Of a stretch of 12,957 nt of DNA, positions 1,698 through 11,775 are shown one piece after another. The DNA is from Clostridia bacterium. Its GTDB lineage: Bacteria > Bacillota > Clostridia > Christensenellales > Aristaeellaceae. A program made the position numbers and the translations under genes. The notes below the pieces were generated by a model that did no database searches, was not told where the DNA came from, and worked only from the letters and a program-made list of their open reading frames with translations. Position 1 is the stretch's first letter; each line of letters begins with the position of its first letter. The stretch spans positions 1 through 12,957 of the forward strand of contig JAZRWA010000087.1 of assembly GCA_045599485.1 (NCBI GenBank), read 5' to 3'.

Positions 1698-1719
1698 CAT
1701 TTTGATGCATAAGAGAGGA

Positions 1720-3555
1720 TCAGTAAATGCGTACCTCGAAGATGACCGCATCGGGCGCGCCGTGAGTGGCAAGGGTTTCCACACGCACCGTATCGCAGAG
1801 GATCGATTCAAAGGGGACGACGTTGAGGCGCTGCAGGTTGCCGCGGATGGAGCGGCGGGCGGTCTCTTTGCCGTCCTTCAGCAGCACGACATCGTAGTCG
1901 CGCACCAGCTCGGGCGGGGTGCTCTTGACCTGCTCAGTGGCGCGGACGGAGGACAGCGTCAGCTTGATGGACTTGCTGAGGTTGGGATCGAAAACAAGGC
2001 GCACCTCGCTGACCGCTTTGCATTCGGACAGCTTCAGCGTGAGGGTGCCCTGCGGACCGTCGGCCTTCCAGCAGTTGCTGTTTTCGCCTTCGCTGCGGCT
2101 GACGCCGTTGATGACGTTGACGGCGGGTTCCTTTTCGCTGTCGGCACTGACAGCGGCGGTAAGGGCCAGATCGGCGGGGTCTTCGTTCTTGAAGCCGGGG
2201 ATGTAGCAGTCATCCTTCAAAAGGGTCTGCTGCAGCTCATGGATATCGATGCCGCGGATGGAGGTGCCGCCCGCAAGGGCCAGCGCCGCCGCCGTGCCGA
2301 TGGCCTGACCGCCTACGGCGCAGGTGCCCATCACGCGGGTGGAGGCCATGGCCAGCTTGCTGGCGCTCAGGCTGCGGCCGCTGATGAACAGGTTTTCGGT
2401 ATTTTTGGCCAGATAGCTGCGGTAGGGGATGGTGTACAGGCCGTCAAAGGGATAGATCTCACTGGGCATCCTGTCAAAGTCGAACAGGCCGTGCTCGATG
2501 TGGTTGTCGACCGCCCAGCCGCCGTAGGCCACGGCGTCGTCAAAGACACGGTTCTCCAACAGGTCGTTTTCGTTGAGGATGTAATCGCCTTCCATGCGGC
2601 GGCTCTCGCGCATGCCGGGCAGCATGCCCACCCATTCCAGATCGTAGTTGGCGGCACCGTGATTGCCGCCGTTTTTGATGTGATCCCAGACGCCGTAGAT
2701 GCAGTTGAACAGCTCGTCACGAATGTCCTCAAACTGCTCGATGATGTCGCCCTTATCGCCGTTGATCTCGATCCACCAGTAGCCGTAATCCATGCAGTAG
2801 CTGTCGGTCATCAGGGCGAGCGCCTTTTTATCCACGCTTTCGATGAGCGCGTCGGCTTTTTCTTCCAGCTGCGGCCCGATCAGGTCGGCATGCTTGCGGT
2901 AGCGCAGCTGCTCCTCGGTAAAATGACGGGCGGTTTTGGGCGGGGTGAACGGAACGGGCTCGCCGCGGTTGACGGCCTTGAACAGCAGGGTGTTGCCCAT
3001 GCGGTGATCATCGGGCTCGGCGGGGGCATGCGGCTCGTTGAATTCGGCCTTGCCCTCACTGCCGGTGCGGAAGGGAACGCCCGCAAAATAGGCCAGCGTG
3101 CCGTTGCCCGTGCAGTCGGCAAAAATATCGGCGCTGATGGTCCATTCGGTCTCGGTGGTCATCTGCCAGCAGCGGATGGATTGGACACGGCCGTTTTCAC
3201 ATGCGGCATCGTGCATGGTGGTATTGAGAAAAACGGTCAGATTCTTTTCACGGGAGGCTTCAAACAGTACACGATCCCACGTTGAAAAATTGAAATAGCG
3301 GTTGACGGCCTTGTTGCTGAGCAGGATCTCACGCAGGATGCCGCCCTCCTCGGCGTTGGGCTTGGTCTCATCCGCCGAGGCACCGCAGATGTGCATGCGG
3401 ATCTCGCTGGAAGCGTTGCCGCCGAACACGGGACGCTCCTGAATGAGCGCCGTGCGCGCGCCGTGACGCGCCGCGGCAATGGCGGCGATGAGGCCGTTCA
3501 TGCCGCCGCCCACGACGCAGAACTGAAAGGATGCCTGCTTTTCACGTGCTTTCAT
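1720..3555 (-). CDS. FAD-dependent oxidoreductase (GxGxxG Rossmann N-terminus, FAD_oxidored-like) with a C-terminal beta-sandwich/discoidin-like domain of about 150 aa
   Basis: Uninterrupted 611-aa ORF. The N-terminus FCVVGGGMNGLIAAIAAARHGARTALIQERPVFGGNASSE is a dinucleotide-binding motif. AGGAGGAAGAAGA lies directly upstream of the ATG at 3555. The stop is TGA, followed by a terminator. Substrate is unknown. Confidence 0.8.
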   Translation of the reverse strand: MKAREKQASFQFCVVGGGMNGLIAAIAAARHGARTALIQERPVFGGNASSEIRMHICGASADETKPNAEEGGILREILLSNKAVNRYFNFSTWDRVLFEASREKNLTVFLNTTMHDAACENGRVQSIRCWQMTTETEWTISADIFADCTGNGTLAYFAGVPFRTGSEGKAEFNEPHAPAEPDDHRMGNTLLFKAVNRGEPVPFTPPKTARHFTEEQLRYRKHADLIGPQLEEKADALIESVDKKALALMTDSYCMDYGYWWIEINGDKGDIIEQFEDIRDELFNCIYGVWDHIKNGGNHGAANYDLEWVGMLPGMRESRRMEGDYILNENDLLENRVFDDAVAYGGWAVDNHIEHGLFDFDRMPSEIYPFDGLYTIPYRSYLAKNTENLFISGRSLSASKLAMASTRVMGTCAVGGQAIGTAAALALAGGTSIRGIDIHELQQTLLKDDCYIPGFKNEDPADLALTAAVSADSEKEPAVNVINGVSRSEGENSNCWKADGPQGTLTLKLSECKAVSEVRLVFDPNLSKSIKLTLSSVRATEQVKSTPPELVRDYDVVLLKDGKETARRSIRGNLQRLNVVPFESILCDTVRVETLATHGAPDAVIFEVRIY

Positions 3556-4259
3556 TCTTCTTCCTCCTTGAGCGTGAATCGGGTGGAATCGAGATCGATC
3601 TCCCCGGGCTTTTTGACAAAGATGGCGAATTTGATGGGGACGCCTTCGGCGGCGTATTTCATTTCGTGCTCGGTGAGATAGTTGGGGGTGAAGCCGTCGG
3701 CGTGCAGATCACGGGTGAGGTGGCGGCACTCAAAGCCGCAGACCTCAAAATACCGGAGAGAATCGTTGAACAGGGCGTCATCATCGGTCTTGAACCAGAT
3801 CTCGCCCCCGTCGACCAGAAAGGTGCGGTACTGCATCAGCTGGCGGGGATGGGTTAGGCGGCGCTTGTGGTGCTTCAAGCGTTCCGCCCACGGATTGCAG
3901 AAGCTGATGTAGATCCTTTCCACCCGGTCCTCTGCCGAAAACGCCTTGTATATGTAGCTGATGTCAAACTTGACCAGCTTCAGGTTGCGGACGGGTTCAT
4001 CGCCGTAGGCGGCGGCGACGTTGCGGCGGGCATTGCCCAGTACATCGGCGGAAATGTCAAAGGCGGCATAGTTGACGCTGGGGTTTTCATGCGCCATGAC
4101 CGCGGTGGATACACCCTTGCCGCAGCCCAGTTCGACATGCAGCGGCTACTCTTTTTCAAAGCTCTGCCGCCAATGACCGCAGAGCGTTTCCGGCTCACGG
4201 GTAAAGTACCCGCACTCCGTCAGTTCGGGCAGCGCCCACTTTTTCTTCCGCATATGCAT
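3552..4259 (-). CDS. trmB: tRNA (guanine46-N7)-methyltransferase, full length only if the in-frame TAG at 4146-4148 is translated
   Basis: - strand translation from ATG 4259 (alternative 4253): MHMRKKKWALPELTECGYFTREPETLCGHWRQSFEKE-TAG-PLHVELGCGKGVSTAVMAHENPSVNYAAFDIS...FCNPWAERLKHHKRRLT...FKTDD. This is colinear with TrmB (from memory, B. subtilis ...WNTVFGNDNPIHIEVGTGKG...). The ORF-track product (3552..4097) starts after the SAM-binding GxGxG motif. The promoter lies upstream of 4259. The TGA stop overlaps the next ATG (ATGA). Confidence 0.85.
4146..4148 (-). other. in-frame TAG inside trmB (candidate sense or readthrough codon)
   Basis: Context gaa aaa gag TAG ccg ctg cat. It is 51 nt upstream of, and in frame with, the ORF-track ATG at 4097, and 105 or 111 nt downstream of ATG 4253 or 4259. 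Confidence 0.85.
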
Positions 4260-4377: not shown

Positions 4378-5169
4378 TTACTGGGGCGGGTTGCCTTTCC
4401 AGAAATGATTGCAGACGGTGCAGGTAAGGGGATAATAGCCGTTGTGCCATTCGCCGCTGGCATCCTCATAACCTTCGACCCAATCGCCCTAGTTGGCAAA
4501 ATCCCAGCAGCTGCTGACTTCATAGACATTGCCGCAGATGGTGCAGCTGTACTGGTGGCTGTCATCACCAATGTACTTGCAGGTAACATTGCAGCGTTCG
4601 GAGAGCTCTTTACCGCAGCCGGCGCAAACACCGTCATGGCTGTTGTCGCCGTCCCAGCACCAGTCGACCACATGGCCGGCATTGCTGCCGAAGTTGCGGT
4701 AATCCACATAACGGCAGACCTGGCAGATGCGGCGTTCCTCACCCTTGCGGACACAGGTGGCTTCGCGCAGGGTCTTCCATTTGCCCCAGGTATGGACGTG
4801 GACCAGCACACGGCAGGCACCGCAGTCGGTGCAGGAGAATACGTCAAAATCGCCTGCCACTTCGGCGGTCTCGCCAAAGATATGACCGGAAGCGTCATCG
4901 CTGCTCAACAGATCGGCCAGCCCGGACGTGACTTTGGAGGCGACGATGGCAAGAACGTTGCTCTCGTCCACCTTGACATTGACAGTGCCCAGTACGGCAC
5001 CGTTATCGTCCGTCCAGGTCACGGTGGCTTCGCCGGCACCGGCGGGGACCAGCATGGACATGCCCTCGACAGTCACAACGGCTTCATTGGAAGAGGTGAC
5101 GGCGGCCAGGGCAGTGGTGATGCCCATCAGCATCAGGCAGATGAGCAGCGCGGTCAGCATTTTTTTCAT
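4378..5169 (-). CDS. secreted cysteine-rich protein of unknown function (signal peptide plus multiple CxxC motifs); contains an in-frame TAG at 4489-4491
   Basis: ATG at 5169 with GGAGG (5177-5181) 7 nt upstream. MKKMLTALLICLMLMGITTALAAV is a signal peptide. The C-terminal half has about 16 Cys in CxxC, CxxCxxC and CxxxC spacings. The frame stays open for 36 codons after the TAG (GDWVEGYEDASGEWHNGYYPLTCTVCNHFWKGNPPQ, which includes another CxxC) up to TAA 4378-4380 and then the terminator. The track start at 5235 is an upstream in-frame ATG with no RBS. Confidence 0.7.
4489..4491 (-). other. in-frame TAG inside the Cys-rich protein gene (candidate sense or readthrough codon)
   Basis: Context ttt gcc aac TAG ggc gat tgg. 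After it come 36 more open codons, then TAA and a strong terminator. Confidence 0.75.
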
Positions 5170-5292: not shown

Positions 5293-5451
5293 GGCTCAAA
5301 AAGAGCCTGTGCCATAGACAGCTGGTACGCCGCAAGGCGTTTGAAGGCGAAAGCCGCCCGCCGAGGCGCAAGCGCATGATTGATTTTATGCCCTTGTGCC
5401 CTGCACAGGGGCTTCTTTTTATCCATGGCCGGACGGAAGGTGAAAACAACA
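5293..5451 (+). promoter_or_regulatory. rplJ 5' leader (probable L10 autoregulatory leader) with a terminator-like attenuator hairpin at 5390-5421
   Basis: About 160 nt of structured, GC-rich untranslated leader lies between the promoter and rplJ. The hairpin is GCCCUUGUGC (5390-5399), loop CCU, GCACAGGGGC (5403-5412), followed by UUCUUUUUA, just before the RBS GGAAGGTGA. This placement matches the L10 leader known upstream of rplJ in Firmicutes. I could not verify the L10-binding motif itself by eye. Confidence 0.5.
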
Positions 5452-6441: not shown

Positions 6442-6475
6442 TGCGCGGGGGTTCTTTCCCCATGTCCCCTGCTAC

Positions 6476-6504
6476 TTGCACGGAAACGGTGATTTTGGTA
6501 TAAT
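6476..6504 (+). promoter_or_regulatory. sigma-A promoter for the SH3b-NlpC/P60 gene (and probably mnmG)
   Basis: TTGCAC (6476-6481), 17-nt spacer ending in TGg (extended -10), TATAAT (6499-6504). GGAGG at 6524-6528 lies 6 nt before ATG 6535. Confidence 0.55.
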
Positions 6505-6534
6505 AAGAAGTGATTTTTTGCCCGGAGGTAAGGT

Positions 6535-8247
6535 ATGCTGAAACGCGCTTTGGCCTTGACCGCGTTTGTACTGATGATGCTGTGCCTGCTCGCCTGCGCA
6601 TACGGCGAGGAGAGCTTTTTTGCCTATTACGGGGAGGAACGGTGGATTCGCCGTGAGCCGGTCAGCGGCAGCAGCGGCGTGGCCGAATTGCCTGCCAACA
6701 CGGTGGTGAAGCTGACCCCTGTCAATGGCAGCTATGCCGCGGTCAGCTACAACGGCAAGGATGGCTATCTGTATTATCCCGAAGCCAACAGGGTGGACAT
6801 GACCGATCCCATGAGCCCCGACGCTGTGTGGGTGGAGGGCAGCTTTGAGGAAGAGGCCGTTCTTCGCCGCGCACCGCTGAAGAATTCCTCCCGTGTGGCG
6901 AATGTGCCCGCCGGGGAACGTGTGCGGGCAACAGCGGTCAACAGCACCTATCTGTATCTGGAATACGGCGGCAAAAGCGGCTATGCCCTTCGGGAACAGT
7001 TTGCCCAGACCGTTTATCCCTCGGGCATCGTGCTGCCCTACATTGTGTATGCCAAGTCGGAAGTGGTGCTGTACAACGGCCCCTATGCCGATTCCGCTGC
7101 TGTGGGCAGCCTCAAGGTCAACACGCCCACGCTGGCGGTGGGCTATGACGGCGAAAGCCTGCTGGTGCAGCAGGACGGTGCCCTGTATTATGCTCCCGCG
7201 CAGAGCCTGACCGTGCTGGAAGGCAATTATGACACCGAGGATTTTGATGCCGCGCTGGCGTCTGCGGCGGATATTCTGGAATATCCCCTGACCAATGCAC
7301 GGGTGATCGGCAAGGGTAAAAAGAAGGCCGCTGTGACGGTACACGCCTTCTTTGGCGAGTACGCCTATCTGACCTGCGGCAGCTATGTGGGCTATGTGCA
7401 CTACAGCAAGCTGCAGGCAACCAAAAACACCAAAGACGCCATGGATGCCATGCAGCGGCAGATCCTCAAACAAAAGGGCCGCAGGTATCTGGAGATCGCT
7501 TTCCAGATGCTGTAGGAGGATAACCCCATCCTGCAGTATTATAACCGTTACTGCCAGGGCAACGCGGTGGCGCGTTTCCGTTACGGCTGCCCCTATTTCT
7601 ACGGCGGCTATAACGAAAACATCCTGCTCAAGGTGTACCGCACGTGGCAGAACAGCCATTATTATCTGATGAGCAACCGCTATCTGGGCGGCTTTGACTG
7701 CATCGGCTTTGCCCGCTGGGTGCATACCACCGCCGGAGATGCGACGCTGCCCGCCATCAGCAAGGTGCGCTCGGACGGACGCAATAACCTGGTGGATGTC
7801 GGCAATTTGCCCTATGACGAGTGGCAGAATGTGCTGCTGGCCGGCGACTGTGTCAACATCGCCTATTCCGGTGGCGGCTATCACATTGGCATTTATATCG
7901 GCACGCTGCGGGAATTTGGCTTCACCGAGGAGGATGTGGGCGAGCCGCTGGCCCCCTATATGGATCGCCCCCTCATCATTCACTGCGGCATGAACAATTT
8001 CCATACCGAATGGTATGCCAAATACCTGAAGGAAAACGGCCTGTCCTCCGTGACTCCGCCCGATGGCGGCGTGACCATCTCGGTCATGGGCGTGGACTTT
8101 GAAAACTGCCCCTATACCGAAACCATGTGGCAGGGGACGGCTAACGTGAAAACCTTTTATTGGTTTGACCTGATGGGCTATAATCTGACGGTCATCAACC
8201 CCATCGGCAGCAATGTGCGCTGGATGGCGGTCTATCGCAGCAAATAA
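6535..8247 (+). CDS. exported cell-wall hydrolase: signal/lipoprotein peptide, about four SH3b-like repeats and a C-terminal NlpC/P60 cysteine peptidase domain. It is a single ORF only if the TAG at 7513-7515 is translated
   Basis: MLKRALALTAFVLMMLCLLAC is a signal peptide with a lipobox-like LLAC. Repeats resemble VVKLTPVNGSYAAVSYNGKDGYLY and RVRATAVNSTYLYLEYGGKSGYAL. ORFs 6535..7515 and 7567..8247 share a frame, and codons 7516-7566 contain no stop. The NlpC/P60 motifs are YGCPYFYGG, GGFDCIGFARWVH (catalytic Cys) and GGGYHIGIYIG (His). The downstream part has no signal peptide, and its track start (GTG 7567) has no RBS. The gene ends with a TAA TAA double stop at 8245-8250. Confidence 0.75.
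7513..7515 (+). other. in-frame TAG between the SH3b repeats and the NlpC/P60 domain (candidate sense or readthrough codon)
   Basis: Context cag atg ctg TAG gag gat aac. The same frame continues EDNPILQYYNRYCQGNAVARFRYGCPYFYGG. Confidence 0.65.
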
Positions 8248-8268
8248 TAAAGAGGCCTTGAAAAACGA

Positions 8269-10032
8269 ATGTTTGATATAATCGTGATCGGAGCGGGGCA
8301 TGCCGGGTGCGAGGCAGCACTCGCGGCGGCCCGCATGGGTCTGGAAACGCTGCTGTTTACCCTGAATCTGGACGCGGTGGCCCTGATGGCCTGCAATCCC
8401 GCCATCGGCGGCACGGGCAAGGGGCATCTGGTACGCGAGGTGGATGCTTTGGGCGGCGAAATGGGCCGCGCTATTGACGATACCACGCTGCAGAGCCGCA
8501 TGCTGAACATGTCCAAGGGCCCGGCGGTGCACTCGCTGCGTGCGCAGGCGGACAAGCGTGAATATCAAAAGCGCATGAAGCGCGCCCTCTTTGCCCAGGA
8601 ACACCTGACGGTGCGTCAGGGCGAGGTGATGCGCATTGAAACGCTGAACGGCCGCGTCAGCGGCGTGATCACGCGCACCGGCGAGCACATTGCCTGCCGC
8701 GCGGCGGTGGTGTGCACCGGCGTGTATCTGAAGGGGCGTGTGTTTATCGGATAGGCGCAGTGGGAGGCGGGTCCGCAGGGGCTGCTGCCGGCCACGGGGC
8801 TGAGCGAGAGCCTGGCGGATCTGGGCTTTCAGCTGCGCCGCTTCAAGACGGGCACACCGGCGCGTGTGGATGCCAGGTCCATTGATTTTTCTGCCATGGA
8901 GCCGCAGCCGGGCGATGACAGGCCGGTGCCGTTCTCCTTTTTGACTGATCACGCGGTGGAAAACCGCATGATGTGCTACCTGACCTATACCAATCCCGCT
9001 ACGCATCAGATCATTTTGGATAACCTGCACCGGGCGCCCATGTTCAACGGTACCATTCAATCGGCCGGCCCGCGCTATTGCCCTTCCATTGAGAGCAAGA
9101 TCGTGCGCTTTAAGGACAAGGACCGCCATCAGCTGTTTCTGGAGCCCGAGGGCTTCAACGATTCCGAATGGTATGTGCAGGGCATGTCCTCCAGTTTGCC
9201 ATAGGATGTGCAGTGGGCCATGTACCGCACCATTCCCGGGCTGGAGCACTGCATCCTGACCCGTCTGGCGTACGCCATTGAGTATGATTGCATCGACTCG
9301 CTGGCACTGTCGCCCACCCTGGGGGCGCTGCAGGTGCCGGGGTTGTACCTCGCGGGGCAGATCAACGGCACCTCGGGGTATGAGGAGGCCGCGGCACAGG
9401 GCATTCTGGCGGGTATCAATGCCGCGCTGTACGTCAAAGAGCGGGAGCCCTTTGTGCTGACCCGCGATCAGGCGTATATCGGCGTGATGACCGATGACCT
9501 GACCACCAAGGGCACGGATGAGCCCTACCGCATGATGACCAGCCGTGCTGAACACCGGCTTTACCTGCGGCAGGACAATGCCGATCTGCGTTTGACCGCC
9601 CGCGCGCATGCCATCGGGCTGGCGACGGATGAGCGCCTGCGCCGTGCCGAGCAAAAGGCGCGGGAGACCGAGGAGCTGCTGCGGTGGCTCAAGGAAAACC
9701 GCAAGGAGGCGCTGCTGCGCCATCCCGAAAACACGATCGATATGCTTCTGCCCGAGGACGCGCCCTTTGGCGCGGCAGCCCGGGAGGAGGCGGAGATCAG
9801 CGTCAAATACGAGGGCTATCTGGAGCGTGAGCAGGCGGCGGTGCGCAAGGCGCAGGCCATGGAAAACCGTCTGCTGCCGCCCGATACGCCCTATATGGAA
9901 ATTACCGGTCTGCGCATGGAAGCGCGTCAGAAGCTGACGGCACAGCGTCCGCTGTCGCTGGCACAGGCTTCCCGCATTCCCGGGGTATCACCTGCTGACA
10001 TTGCCGTGCTGATGGTATGGCTGCGAAAGTGA
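8269..10032 (+). CDS. mnmG: tRNA uridine 5-carboxymethylaminomethyl modification enzyme MnmG (GidA), intact apart from two in-frame TAG codons (8752-8754, 9202-9204)
   Basis: Three track ORFs (8269..8754, 8866..9204, 9208..10032) are all in frame 1 and together give a colinear Mnm[25 protein letters not shown] ... [60 protein letters not shown] ... [44 protein letters not shown] ... [21 protein letters not shown] ... [20 protein letters not shown]. The stop is TGA. Confidence 0.9.
8752..8754 (+). other. first in-frame TAG inside mnmG
   Basis: Context ttt atc gga TAG gcg cag tgg. The conserved [11 protein letters not shown] motif follows in the same frame, 29 codons later. Confidence 0.9.
9202..9204 (+). 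other. second in-frame TAG inside mnmG
   Basis: Context agt ttg cca TAG gat gtg cag. It sits inside the conserved S-S-L-P-x-D-V-Q ... GLE ... YAIEYD block. Confidence 0.9.
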
Positions 10033-10396: not shown

Positions 10397-10421
10397 ATCA
10401 AATCAGAAAGGACGAATGATC

Positions 10422-11756
10422 ATGAAACAGCTTCCCGTAACCGCCGAAATGCTGGCCCGCTGGGATGCGGCAAATGCCAATTGCAAGCGCCGCCGTCTGG
10501 CCGAGAGAGCCCTGTCCAAGTGCGACCTGAACGATGTGATGTTCAACAACACCGCCGCCGCCGCGATGCGCCAGAAGTTTTCTCTGGAGCTGGATACGCT
10601 GCCGGTGACCTGTCAGAAACAATCCGGCCGCTGCTGGCTCTTTGCCGCCGCCAATGTGCTGCGTGAGAAAATCGCCAAAGAAAAGAACCTGGCAAACTTT
10701 GAACTTTCTCAGAGCTGGCTTGCTTTCTGGGACAAGTTTGAGCGCGCCAACTATTTCCTGCAGGCCATGATGGATACTGCCGAACTGCCTCATGATGACC
10801 GCACAGTGTCCTTTGTGCTGTCCACCGGCGTGCATGACGGCGGCCAGTGGGATATGTTTGCCAACATCGTCCGCAAGTACGGCATCGTGCCCAAGGATGT
10901 GTTTGATGAGACCTATCAATCCTCCAGCACCCGCCCCATGAACTATTATGTCAACCGCTTCCTCAAGGCCCGTGCCGCTGTGCTGCGCCGCATGGTGCAG
11001 GAAGGCAAGCCCGAGGACGAGGTGCAGGCCGAAAAGGAGAAGGCACTGGAAAAGGTCTATTCCTTCCTGTGCTCCTGCTACGGTGTGCCGCCCAAGAGCT
11101 TCGACTTTGAGTATGTGGACAGGAACAGGGAGTACCACATCGAAACGGGCTACACTCCCGAAAGCTTCCGCGACAAGTATGTGGGCGACCTGCTGGACAA
11201 GACCGTCAGCATCATCAACGCCCCCACCGCGGATAAGCCCTATCACAAGACCTTCACCGTTCGTCTGCTGGGCAACGTGATCGGCGGCAAACCCGTAGTG
11301 CACCTGAACCTGACGATGGATGAATTCAAGCAGGCGATCCTCAACCAGCTGAACGCCGGCAAGGTGGTCTGGTTTGGCAGCGATGTGGGTCATTTCGGTG
11401 AACGCACATTGGGTATCTGGGACAACAACTGCTTTGACGCGGAGCTGGTGACCGGCATGGATCTGAGCATCAGCAAGGCGGACGCGCTGGAGATGGGTCT
11501 TTCTGCCATGAACCACGCCATGGTGCTGACCGGCGTCAACATGAAGGATGGCAAGCCCGACCGCTGGCGCATTGAAAACAGCTGGGGCGATGACAAGGGC
11601 CAGAAGGGCTATTACATCTGCTCTGATGACTGGTTCAACCAGTATGTGTATCAGGCGGCGGTCGAGAGAGAATACCTGGGTGATCTGGCCAAGTATGCCG
11701 ACGAGACGCCCGTTGAGCTGGCTCCCTGGGATCCCATGGGCACGCTGGCAGACTGA
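10422..11756 (+). CDS. pepC: aminopeptidase C (bleomycin-hydrolase-like cysteine peptidase, family C1B)
   Basis: MKQLPVTAEMLARWDAANANCKRRRLAERAL... with the catalytic block QKQSGRCWLFAAANVLR, His in MNHAMVLTGV and Asn/Trp in ENSWGDDKGQKGYY. The AGAAAGGA RBS sits about 9 nt before ATG 10422; the in-frame ATG at 10416 is too close to the RBS, and the track start 10365 overlaps the previous ORF. The stop is TGA. Confidence 0.85.
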   Translation: MKQLPVTAEMLARWDAANANCKRRRLAERALSKCDLNDVMFNNTAAAAMRQKFSLELDTLPVTCQKQSGRCWLFAAANVLREKIAKEKNLANFELSQSWLAFWDKFERANYFLQAMMDTAELPHDDRTVSFVLSTGVHDGGQWDMFANIVRKYGIVPKDVFDETYQSSSTRPMNYYVNRFLKARAAVLRRMVQEGKPEDEVQAEKEKALEKVYSFLCSCYGVPPKSFDFEYVDRNREYHIETGYTPESFRDKYVGDLLDKTVSIINAPTADKPYHKTFTVRLLGNVIGGKPVVHLNLTMDEFKQAILNQLNAGKVVWFGSDVGHFGERTLGIWDNNCFDAELVTGMDLSISKADALEMGLSAMNHAMVLTGVNMKDGKPDRWRIENSWGDDKGQKGYYICSDDWFNQYVYQAAVEREYLGDLAKYADETPVELAPWDPMGTLAD

Positions 11757-11775
11757 AAAACCACACAATGACTTC

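Follow-up and report, generated by a model that had tools for sequence, protein, structure and literature searches.

Two in-frame TAG codons in mnmG

The gene mnmG contains two in-frame TAG codons in an uncultured member of the Clostridia. It lies on a stretch of 12,957 nt from contig JAZRWA010000087.1 (GCA_045599485.1, Clostridia bacterium), which was analysed in full and is referred to here as the window. The organism is Christensenellales-like with a GC content of 58%, and its sequence is a metagenome-assembled genome (MAG) from a gut/rumen metagenome. We re-called the open reading frames (ORFs) with TAG as a sense codon, and every gene in the window could be identified. Four of the 12 genes contain a total of five in-frame TAGs: two in mnmG and one each in trmB, a gene for a secreted NlpC/P60 hydrolase and a gene for a secreted cysteine-rich protein (Table 1). 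The 3,985 annotated codons of the window contain no in-frame TGA or TAA. As judged from the sequence comparisons below, TAG is probably translated as an amino acid in this lineage rather than acting as an efficient terminator.

For comparison, we gathered contigs of sister species with approximately 90-91% nucleotide identity to the window (L001-L004 and L093-L095) from NCBI (GCA_024404275.1), ENA and Logan. Of these, L002 is Logan SRR27361835, ERZ27247129 is also among the sources of L001-L003, and L093-L095 are PepC-cluster contigs that start downstream of mnmG codon 312. A broader panel consisted of 80 GTDB representatives with mnmG (L011-L090; approximately 1.3 Mb), all uncultured Christensenellales-like Clostridia MAGs from rumen and gut. 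The closest MnmG in this panel is 86% identical to that of the window.

The two TAGs are found at mnmG codons 162 and 312, both of them sense positions in homologues, as an earlier reading made from the sequence alone (the sequence-only reading) had claimed. The Pfam GIDA domain (PF01134) runs colinearly over both TAGs, with MnmG residues 3-392 matching model positions 1-390/391 (E = 1e-161). Both C-terminal MnmG domains are also present (GIDA_C_1st, PF21680, and SAM_GIDA_C, PF13932), and a match to MnmG in PDB spans residues 2-587 of the protein (E = 1e-182). In solved structures, the residues at the TAG columns are Leu and Phe in E. coli (KIHIG-L-DNYSGG and SLP-F-DVQ) and Asp and Glu in Aquifex; the E. 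coli segments match those given in the sequence-only reading. It had also named Glu at these columns for many Clostridia-type sequences and hence proposed Glu or Gln as plausible meanings of TAG, which agrees well with the orthologues, where both columns are approximately 80% Glu. Codon 162 aligns with Glu in 66 of 83 orthologues (S 6, D 6, Q 3, P 1, G 1) and codon 312 with Glu in 66 of 82 (Q 5, R 4, K 3, A 3, S 1). All close relatives have Glu at both columns, and none of the other 83 mnmG genes in the panel contains an internal stop.

The window and L002 differ by approximately 9% in mnmG DNA (~91% identity), while their MnmG proteins are 98.5% identical. The ratio of nonsynonymous to synonymous substitution rates (dN/dS, or omega) against L002 is 0.026 for codons 1-161, 0.031 for codons 163-311 and 0.000 for codons 313-587, and there are no indels. 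After codon 312, 55 synonymous and 0 nonsynonymous differences are found in 275 codons, leaving the protein identical. When changes are polarised with outgroups, the window branch has acquired 61 synonymous changes, four missense changes (none past codon 312) and the two GAG-to-TAG changes. The sequence-only reading had proposed a dN/dS comparison as a check and had considered inactivation at codon 162 unexpected in so complete a gene; strong purifying selection indeed continues past each TAG, and neither neutral evolution nor indels are seen.

A derived A stands directly before each of the two mnmG TAGs. The window reads GGA TAG (8749-8754) and CCA TAG (9199-9204) where the sisters read GGT GAG and CCG GAG, and the window thus carries adjacent double changes at both sites. 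The preceding codons are rare among relatives, with GGA in 2 of 83 before codon 162 and CCA in 1 of 82 before codon 312. The derived A could reflect tandem mutation, selection on the codon context of UAG decoding, or loss of a Shine-Dalgarno-like GGAGG/TGAGG.

Right after mnmG codon 162, a stable stem is predicted (8754-8840, plus strand; -59 kcal/mol, z = -3.6). Such a hairpin could suggest site-specific programmed read-through, whether PYLIS-/SECIS-like or through a leaky context, with TAG a normal stop elsewhere. A G also follows the TAG in five of six cases (the five window TAGs and a further one in L002, described below), the derived A precedes both mnmG TAGs, and an autolysin like the NlpC/P60 hydrolase might plausibly be kept in check by low-level read-through. 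However, relatives with GAG have the same hairpin, and it is conserved among relatives (-47 to -52 kcal/mol) whatever codon 162 is. The other four contexts show no unusual structure (z -1.3 to +2.2), and no RNA structure or motif is shared downstream of the TAGs. Two inefficient read-through events in series would also leave almost no MnmG, yet mnmG is strongly selected. We therefore regard site-specific read-through as extremely improbable.

TAG codons in the neighbouring genes

The gene upstream of mnmG encodes a peptidoglycan hydrolase with the Pfam domains SH3_3, SH3_4 and NLPC_P60. Its codon 327 is TAG not only in the window but also in L001-L003, and a 326-aa fragment ending at this TAG is found in at least eight independent assemblies from several samples and species. 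We found 27 unsplit homologues (approximately 570 aa, 43-50% identity), in which the residue at this column is Glu (23) or Asp (4), within the conserved motif LNIAFTML[E]EGNPIL. Omega is nearly the same on either side of the TAG (0.088 before and 0.080 after), again without indels.

Alternatively, the gene could have been split long ago into two proteins that are translated separately, and an AGGAGG does follow the TAG. However, conserved Glu-Glu/Asp codons yield AGGAGG at this site anyway. The sole possible in-frame restart after the TAG is a GTG at 7567, which lies 17 codons (51 nt) downstream. These 17 codons, which a restart would skip, show three differences to the sisters, every one of them synonymous, and encode four family-invariant residues. 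The restarted C-terminal fragment, containing the catalytic half, would also be without a signal peptide. Because the skipped codons are conserved and the fragment would not be exported, the secreted enzyme is predicted to require read-through of TAG, and to have been kept in this form since before the species diverged. The gene of L002 has an additional in-frame TAG at codon 99 (L002:3941-3943), specific to that lineage; the window, L001 and L003 read TGG there, and the residue in distant homologues is Thr or Ser.

In trmB, the TAG lies directly before the S-adenosylmethionine (SAM)-binding motif. TrmB of the sister species is uninterrupted (236 aa), and the window gene has an omega of 0.027 before the TAG and 0.096 after it, without indels. 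The corresponding 37-aa and 181-aa fragments are on record only from the window contig. The stop of trmB overlaps the start of the FAD-oxidoreductase gene by 4 nt (ATGA; 3552-3555, minus strand), which suggests translational coupling.

The cysteine-rich protein has a signal-peptide-like N-terminus. Its sister orthologues are 263 aa long, equal to the 226 codons before the window TAG, the TAG itself and 36 further codons, with the same TAA end. The protein is fast-evolving (omega 0.29 before the TAG and 0.3-0.5 after), and the 36 codons past the TAG keep the GC periodicity of coding sequence (0.56/0.47/0.67) and a CxxC motif.

A further in-frame TAG was observed in a more distant Clostridia MAG, S22M_St_68 (JAUNDF010000071.1; L085:3946-3948), in a pseudouridine synthase of the RluD type, where it lies inside the conserved S4 motif (GRRLDVLLA-TAG-VSGLTRSR). 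At this position, homologues with 74% identity have Lys or Glu. As the MnmG of this MAG is only 66% identical to that of the window, in-frame TAGs may occur sporadically elsewhere in the order.

Table 1. Positions of the TAG-bearing genes and their in-frame TAG codons in the window.
Feature	Position	Strand	Description
trmB	3552..4259	-	tRNA m7G46 methyltransferase; Pfam Methyltransf_4; 235 codons, ends TGA, one TAG
trmB TAG, codon 38	4146-4148	-	directly before SAM-binding motif PLHVELGCGKG
Secreted Cys-rich protein	4378..5169	-	263 codons if TAG is read through, ends TAA
Cys-rich TAG, codon 227	4489-4491	-	read-through or real truncation
NlpC/P60 hydrolase	6535..8247	+	secreted SH3-repeat + NlpC/P60 (C40) peptidoglycan hydrolase; 570 codons, ends TAA, one TAG
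NlpC/P60 TAG, codon 327	7513-7515	+	
mnmG	8269..10032	+	tRNA U34 carboxymethylaminomethyl-modification enzyme; 587 codons, ends TGA, two in-frame TAGs
mnmG TAG, codon 162	8752-8754	+	
mnmG TAG, codon 312	9202-9204	+	SSSLP*DVQ

The window begins with the N-terminus of nifJ, followed by an FAD oxidoreductase gene, trmB and the cysteine-rich protein gene, all on the minus strand. Then come a ribosomal protein L10 leader, rplJ, rplL, the SH3 and NlpC/P60 hydrolase gene, mnmG, a gene for a 117-aa protein, pepC, proB and the start of proA. The L10 leader, upstream of rplJ (5294-5427, plus strand), is a full-length match to RF00557, but its score of 35.7 bits is below the gathering threshold of 44 (E = 0.0085).

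Reassignment or loss of function

The window and its relatives show several features of a reassigned codon: TAGs at sense residues of unrelated conserved genes, selection downstream of them without frameshifts, and a TAG shared by related genomes. That the TAGs are found in several genes, with one conserved across sister species, points to a change of decoding at the level of the lineage rather than an oddity of one gene. The usual signs of pseudogenes are absent from mnmG, trmB and the NlpC/P60 gene, where omega is 0.00-0.10 and there are no indels, TGA or TAA. With TAG as sense, these three genes, and probably the cysteine-rich gene, would be made as full-length proteins.

Termination in this clade makes little use of TAG. 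The 10 complete genes of the window end in TAA (5) or TGA (5). Across 876 gene ends in the panel, TAG accounts for 48 (5.5%), compared with 417 TAA and 411 TGA, and in the six closest GTDB relatives only one of 58 terminators is TAG. We also screened the approximately 1.3 Mb of the 80 relatives for true-frame internal stops, which proved to be few and without TAG bias. This screen was filtered by GC periodicity; it replaced homology-spanned screens, which were swamped by conserved off-frame and antisense ORFs of DNA with high GC at third codon positions (GC3).

The window itself contains very long spurious ORFs antisense to real genes (6472-9723, minus strand; 1702-3285, plus strand; 10398-11768, minus strand), the longest of which has 1,083 codons and spans both the NlpC/P60 gene and mnmG. 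Their GC periodicity (GC1 approximately 0.75, GC3 approximately 0.6) is the mirror image of the GC3-rich coding frames. They are conserved among relatives and can mislead homology-based screens.

Several points weigh against a reassignment. Since TAG is a rare terminator throughout the clade, approximately 0.6 TAG ends would be expected in 10 genes, and the lack of any in the window (0/10) is uninformative and carries no weight. The exclusive use of TAG among the in-frame stops is also a weak statistical argument, because the codon usage of the window makes TAG the most accessible stop, with 58-63% of one-step nonsense paths; under random nonsense mutation, finding five TAGs among five stops has a p of only approximately 0.06-0.10. 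ARAGORN and Rfam, in both strict and permissive searches, detected no tRNA(CUA) in the window or any of 90 related loci. The four window-specific TAGs (two in mnmG and those in trmB and the cysteine-rich gene) are known from one MAG contig only, each of their shortened products occurs just once in a collection of 15 billion proteins, and we found no independent sample of the window species covering the TAG sites. The TAG columns do not fit any single residue; trmB codon 38 aligns with Gln in 37 of 47 homologues (79%; A 7, R 2, G 1) and never with Glu. Three of the six events behind the TAGs (CAG to TAG, and TGG to TAG twice) are the classic transition nonsense mutations of pseudogenes. Finally, each of the four genes with a TAG may plausibly be dispensable. 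In mnmG, the substitution counts permit a neutral phase of up to approximately 5% of the window branch, and inactivation within the last ~5% of the branch is compatible with any single gene.

Much of this also speaks for an explanation that retains the standard code, in which mnmG, trmB and the cysteine-rich gene carry recent nonsense alleles in dispensable genes, and the NlpC/P60 gene is an old split. The reliance on one contig, the accessibility of TAG, the short neutral phase, the AGGAGG after the NlpC/P60 TAG and the lack of one residue common to the TAG columns can all be counted in its favour. The genes affected are also non-essential in model bacteria. Mistaking CAG-to-TAG and TGG-to-TAG nonsense mutations for reassignment is, moreover, a pitfall flagged in the Codetta paper (Codetta 2021, PMC8629427). 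However, three of 12 neighbouring genes must then have been inactivated nearly simultaneously, mnmG twice, without any frameshift, TGA, TAA or excess of missense changes. It is difficult to reconcile with the 55 synonymous to 0 nonsynonymous differences past mnmG codon 312, and both mnmG events are GAG-to-TAG transversions at Glu-dominated columns with an unusual derived A before each. In the NlpC/P60 gene, the TAG persists across species with an omega of approximately 0.08 in both halves, and the split is countered by the conserved codons described above. Overall, we consider loss of function under the standard code unlikely.

The shortened products of the TAG-split window genes, among them MnmG pieces of 161 aa and 270 aa, are present in public protein records under an unannotated NCBI MAG contig of 12,958 bp, and the TAGs are thus in the public sequence. 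They could in principle be artefacts of sequencing, assembly or consensus calling, as only one MAG contig supplies the four window-specific TAGs and a metagenome scan gave no second copy; this one scan, for F-I-G-[TAG/GAG]-A-Q-W-E, returned only a chance match in unrelated low-GC DNA (L092). We find such an artefact highly improbable. Random errors would be expected to leave frameshifts, missense changes and other kinds of stop as well, whereas the 275 codons past the second mnmG TAG are protein-identical to the sister. Three different base changes are involved, and the NlpC/P60 TAG recurs in the independent assemblies noted above, which were made with different pipelines. An RplJ record from JGI (P0076) was considered as a possible second copy of the window species and rejected, as its gene neighbours differ (L091).

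If TAG is sense, the next question is its meaning. Every TAG is one mutation away from the ancestral codon, with G to T, C to T and G to A changes all represented. The sister codons at the window TAGs are GAG at both mnmG sites, CAG in trmB, TGG in the cysteine-rich gene and TAG in the NlpC/P60 gene. Across the six TAGs (five in the window and the extra one in L002), the aligned residues are approximately 80% Glu at two, 100% Glu or Asp at one and 79% Gln at one, with Trp, in the sisters only, at the remaining two. We modelled the origin spectrum with 144 GAG codons, 106 CAG codons and a branch dS of approximately 0.17; two GAG-derived TAGs against one CAG-derived TAG favour Glu over Gln with likelihood ratios of 11-356, depending on kappa and omega. 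Glu is the best single meaning because both changes in mnmG (omega approximately 0.02) then become synonymous, while the nonsynonymous events fall in less constrained genes. UAG would most likely be read as Glu, with Gln as the second choice, and ambiguous near-cognate decoding without release factor 1 (RF1) is also possible. Trp, as suggested by the two TGG-derived TAGs, was rejected, as three TAGs are at strongly acidic columns.

A different meaning would be pyrrolysine (Pyl), inserted genome-wide through pylT and pylSBCD elsewhere in the genome, as a bacterial counterpart of the archaeal Code 34. Pyl is the sole natural sense decoding of TAG known in bacterial cells, and in archaea with Code 34, where all TAGs are read as Pyl, many ordinary genes likewise contain in-frame TAGs and TAG usage is low, in line with the rarity of TAG as a terminator in this clade. 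Against this, three TAGs align with columns of 80-100% acidic residues, which a bulky lysine derivative is unlikely to replace, and the TAGs of the most constrained gene act like synonymous changes from GAG. The approximately 13 kb of genome at hand contains no pyl genes. Pyl is thus very unlikely as the general meaning of TAG here, and even jointly, an artefact, Pyl and site-specific read-through seem quite unlikely.

We lean towards the more specific proposal that an uncultured genus of Clostridia from gut or rumen has converted UAG from stop to sense, most likely Glu. Bacteria would then have a fourth genetic code, and an amber codon would for the first time be known to be naturally reassigned in a bacterial chromosome. 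The reassignment appears to be at an early stage, as the genus shares one ancestral TAG while one species is rapidly gaining new ones. Decoding would be carried out by a tRNA with anticodon CUA, most simply a derivative of tRNA-Glu(CUC); related loci do contain tRNA genes with the anticodon CUC. RF1 would presumably be lost or weakened. A search of the loci for an RF1 gene of the clade found only one RF2, in the distant locus L038. The change would probably have proceeded by codon capture, a route that fits because TAG is a rare terminator across the clade. With TAG already rare, new TAGs would then arise by single mutations from GAG, CAG and TGG, and would have piled up fastest in the window species.

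Comparison with known systems

The known stop reassignments in bacteria all involve UGA (Codetta 2021, PMC8629427). The lists of KACI (2026) and gTranslate (2026) include no bacterial TAG reassignment, and we found none in the literature searched. According to the surveys covered, UAG has so far been reassigned only in phages, archaea (Pyl) and eukaryotes. If true, the reassignment proposed here would be a new bacterial code, with UAG read as a canonical amino acid in a free-living high-GC bacterium. It would provide a natural test of the codon-capture and RF1-loss route, for which engineered E. coli has been the only system so far. The annotation of such MAGs would also have to change, as standard gene callers split these genes, which is visible in public records. 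Its consequences would extend to the arms race with phages of the same habitats that have recoded TAG, and a natural Glu-inserting tRNA(CUA)/synthetase pair would be of interest for genetic-code engineering.

One close parallel is phage code 15 (TAG to Gln), used by gut phages of the crAss-like and Lak types and relying on a suppressor tRNA(CUA) (Ivanova 2014, as cited; PMC9523058; bioRxiv 10.1101/2021.08.26.457843). Here too, TAGs are found at sense positions of conserved genes, in gut and rumen ecosystems. Unlike in these phages, the window TAGs are in chromosomal housekeeping genes near rplJ, rplL, proBA and nifJ. The window columns and origin spectrum also favour Glu rather than Gln, and a suppressor tRNA has not been found so far.

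With the archaeal code 34, the window organism would share the conversion of TAG into a sense codon throughout a cellular genome, with TAGs scattered in ordinary genes, a density that varies by lineage, and genes split by gene callers. Code 34 is, however, found in Archaea and depends on the Pyl machinery, whereas the window is from a bacterium, has its TAGs at acidic or Gln columns and contains no pyl genes in its 13 kb. In bacteria, only a few enzymes contain Pyl, and elsewhere TAG acts as a stop (Kivenson et al.).

The bacterial codes 4 (UGA to Trp, in Mycoplasmatales and others) and 25 (UGA to Gly, in Gracilibacteria and Absconditabacteria) also represent stops captured as sense in restricted clades, where the cognate tRNA is coupled to loss of a release factor. 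They concern UGA and RF2, mostly in low-GC or reduced genomes, whereas the window would concern UAG and RF1 at 58% GC. Amber-suppressor and RF1-deleted strains of E. coli (supE/supF, C321.deltaA-type) demonstrate that UAG as a sense or unassigned codon is tolerable once few essential genes end in TAG. Without RF1, near-cognate insertion of Gln, Tyr and Trp occurs at UAG. These strains are engineered or selected in the laboratory, whereas the pattern in the window is natural and inherited across species.

A precedent for Glu as the meaning of a UAR-family stop comes from the nuclear UAR-to-Glu codes of protists, such as Blastocrithidia nonstop and peritrich ciliates (PMC12153298). Those codes are eukaryotic, arise through eRF1 and tRNA mechanisms that have no relation to bacterial RF1, and include both UAA and UAG, whereas UAA is still a terminator in the window, ending five of the 10 complete genes. 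The window organism would work like phage code 15, archaeal code 34 and bacterial codes 4 and 25, yet be a member of none of them.

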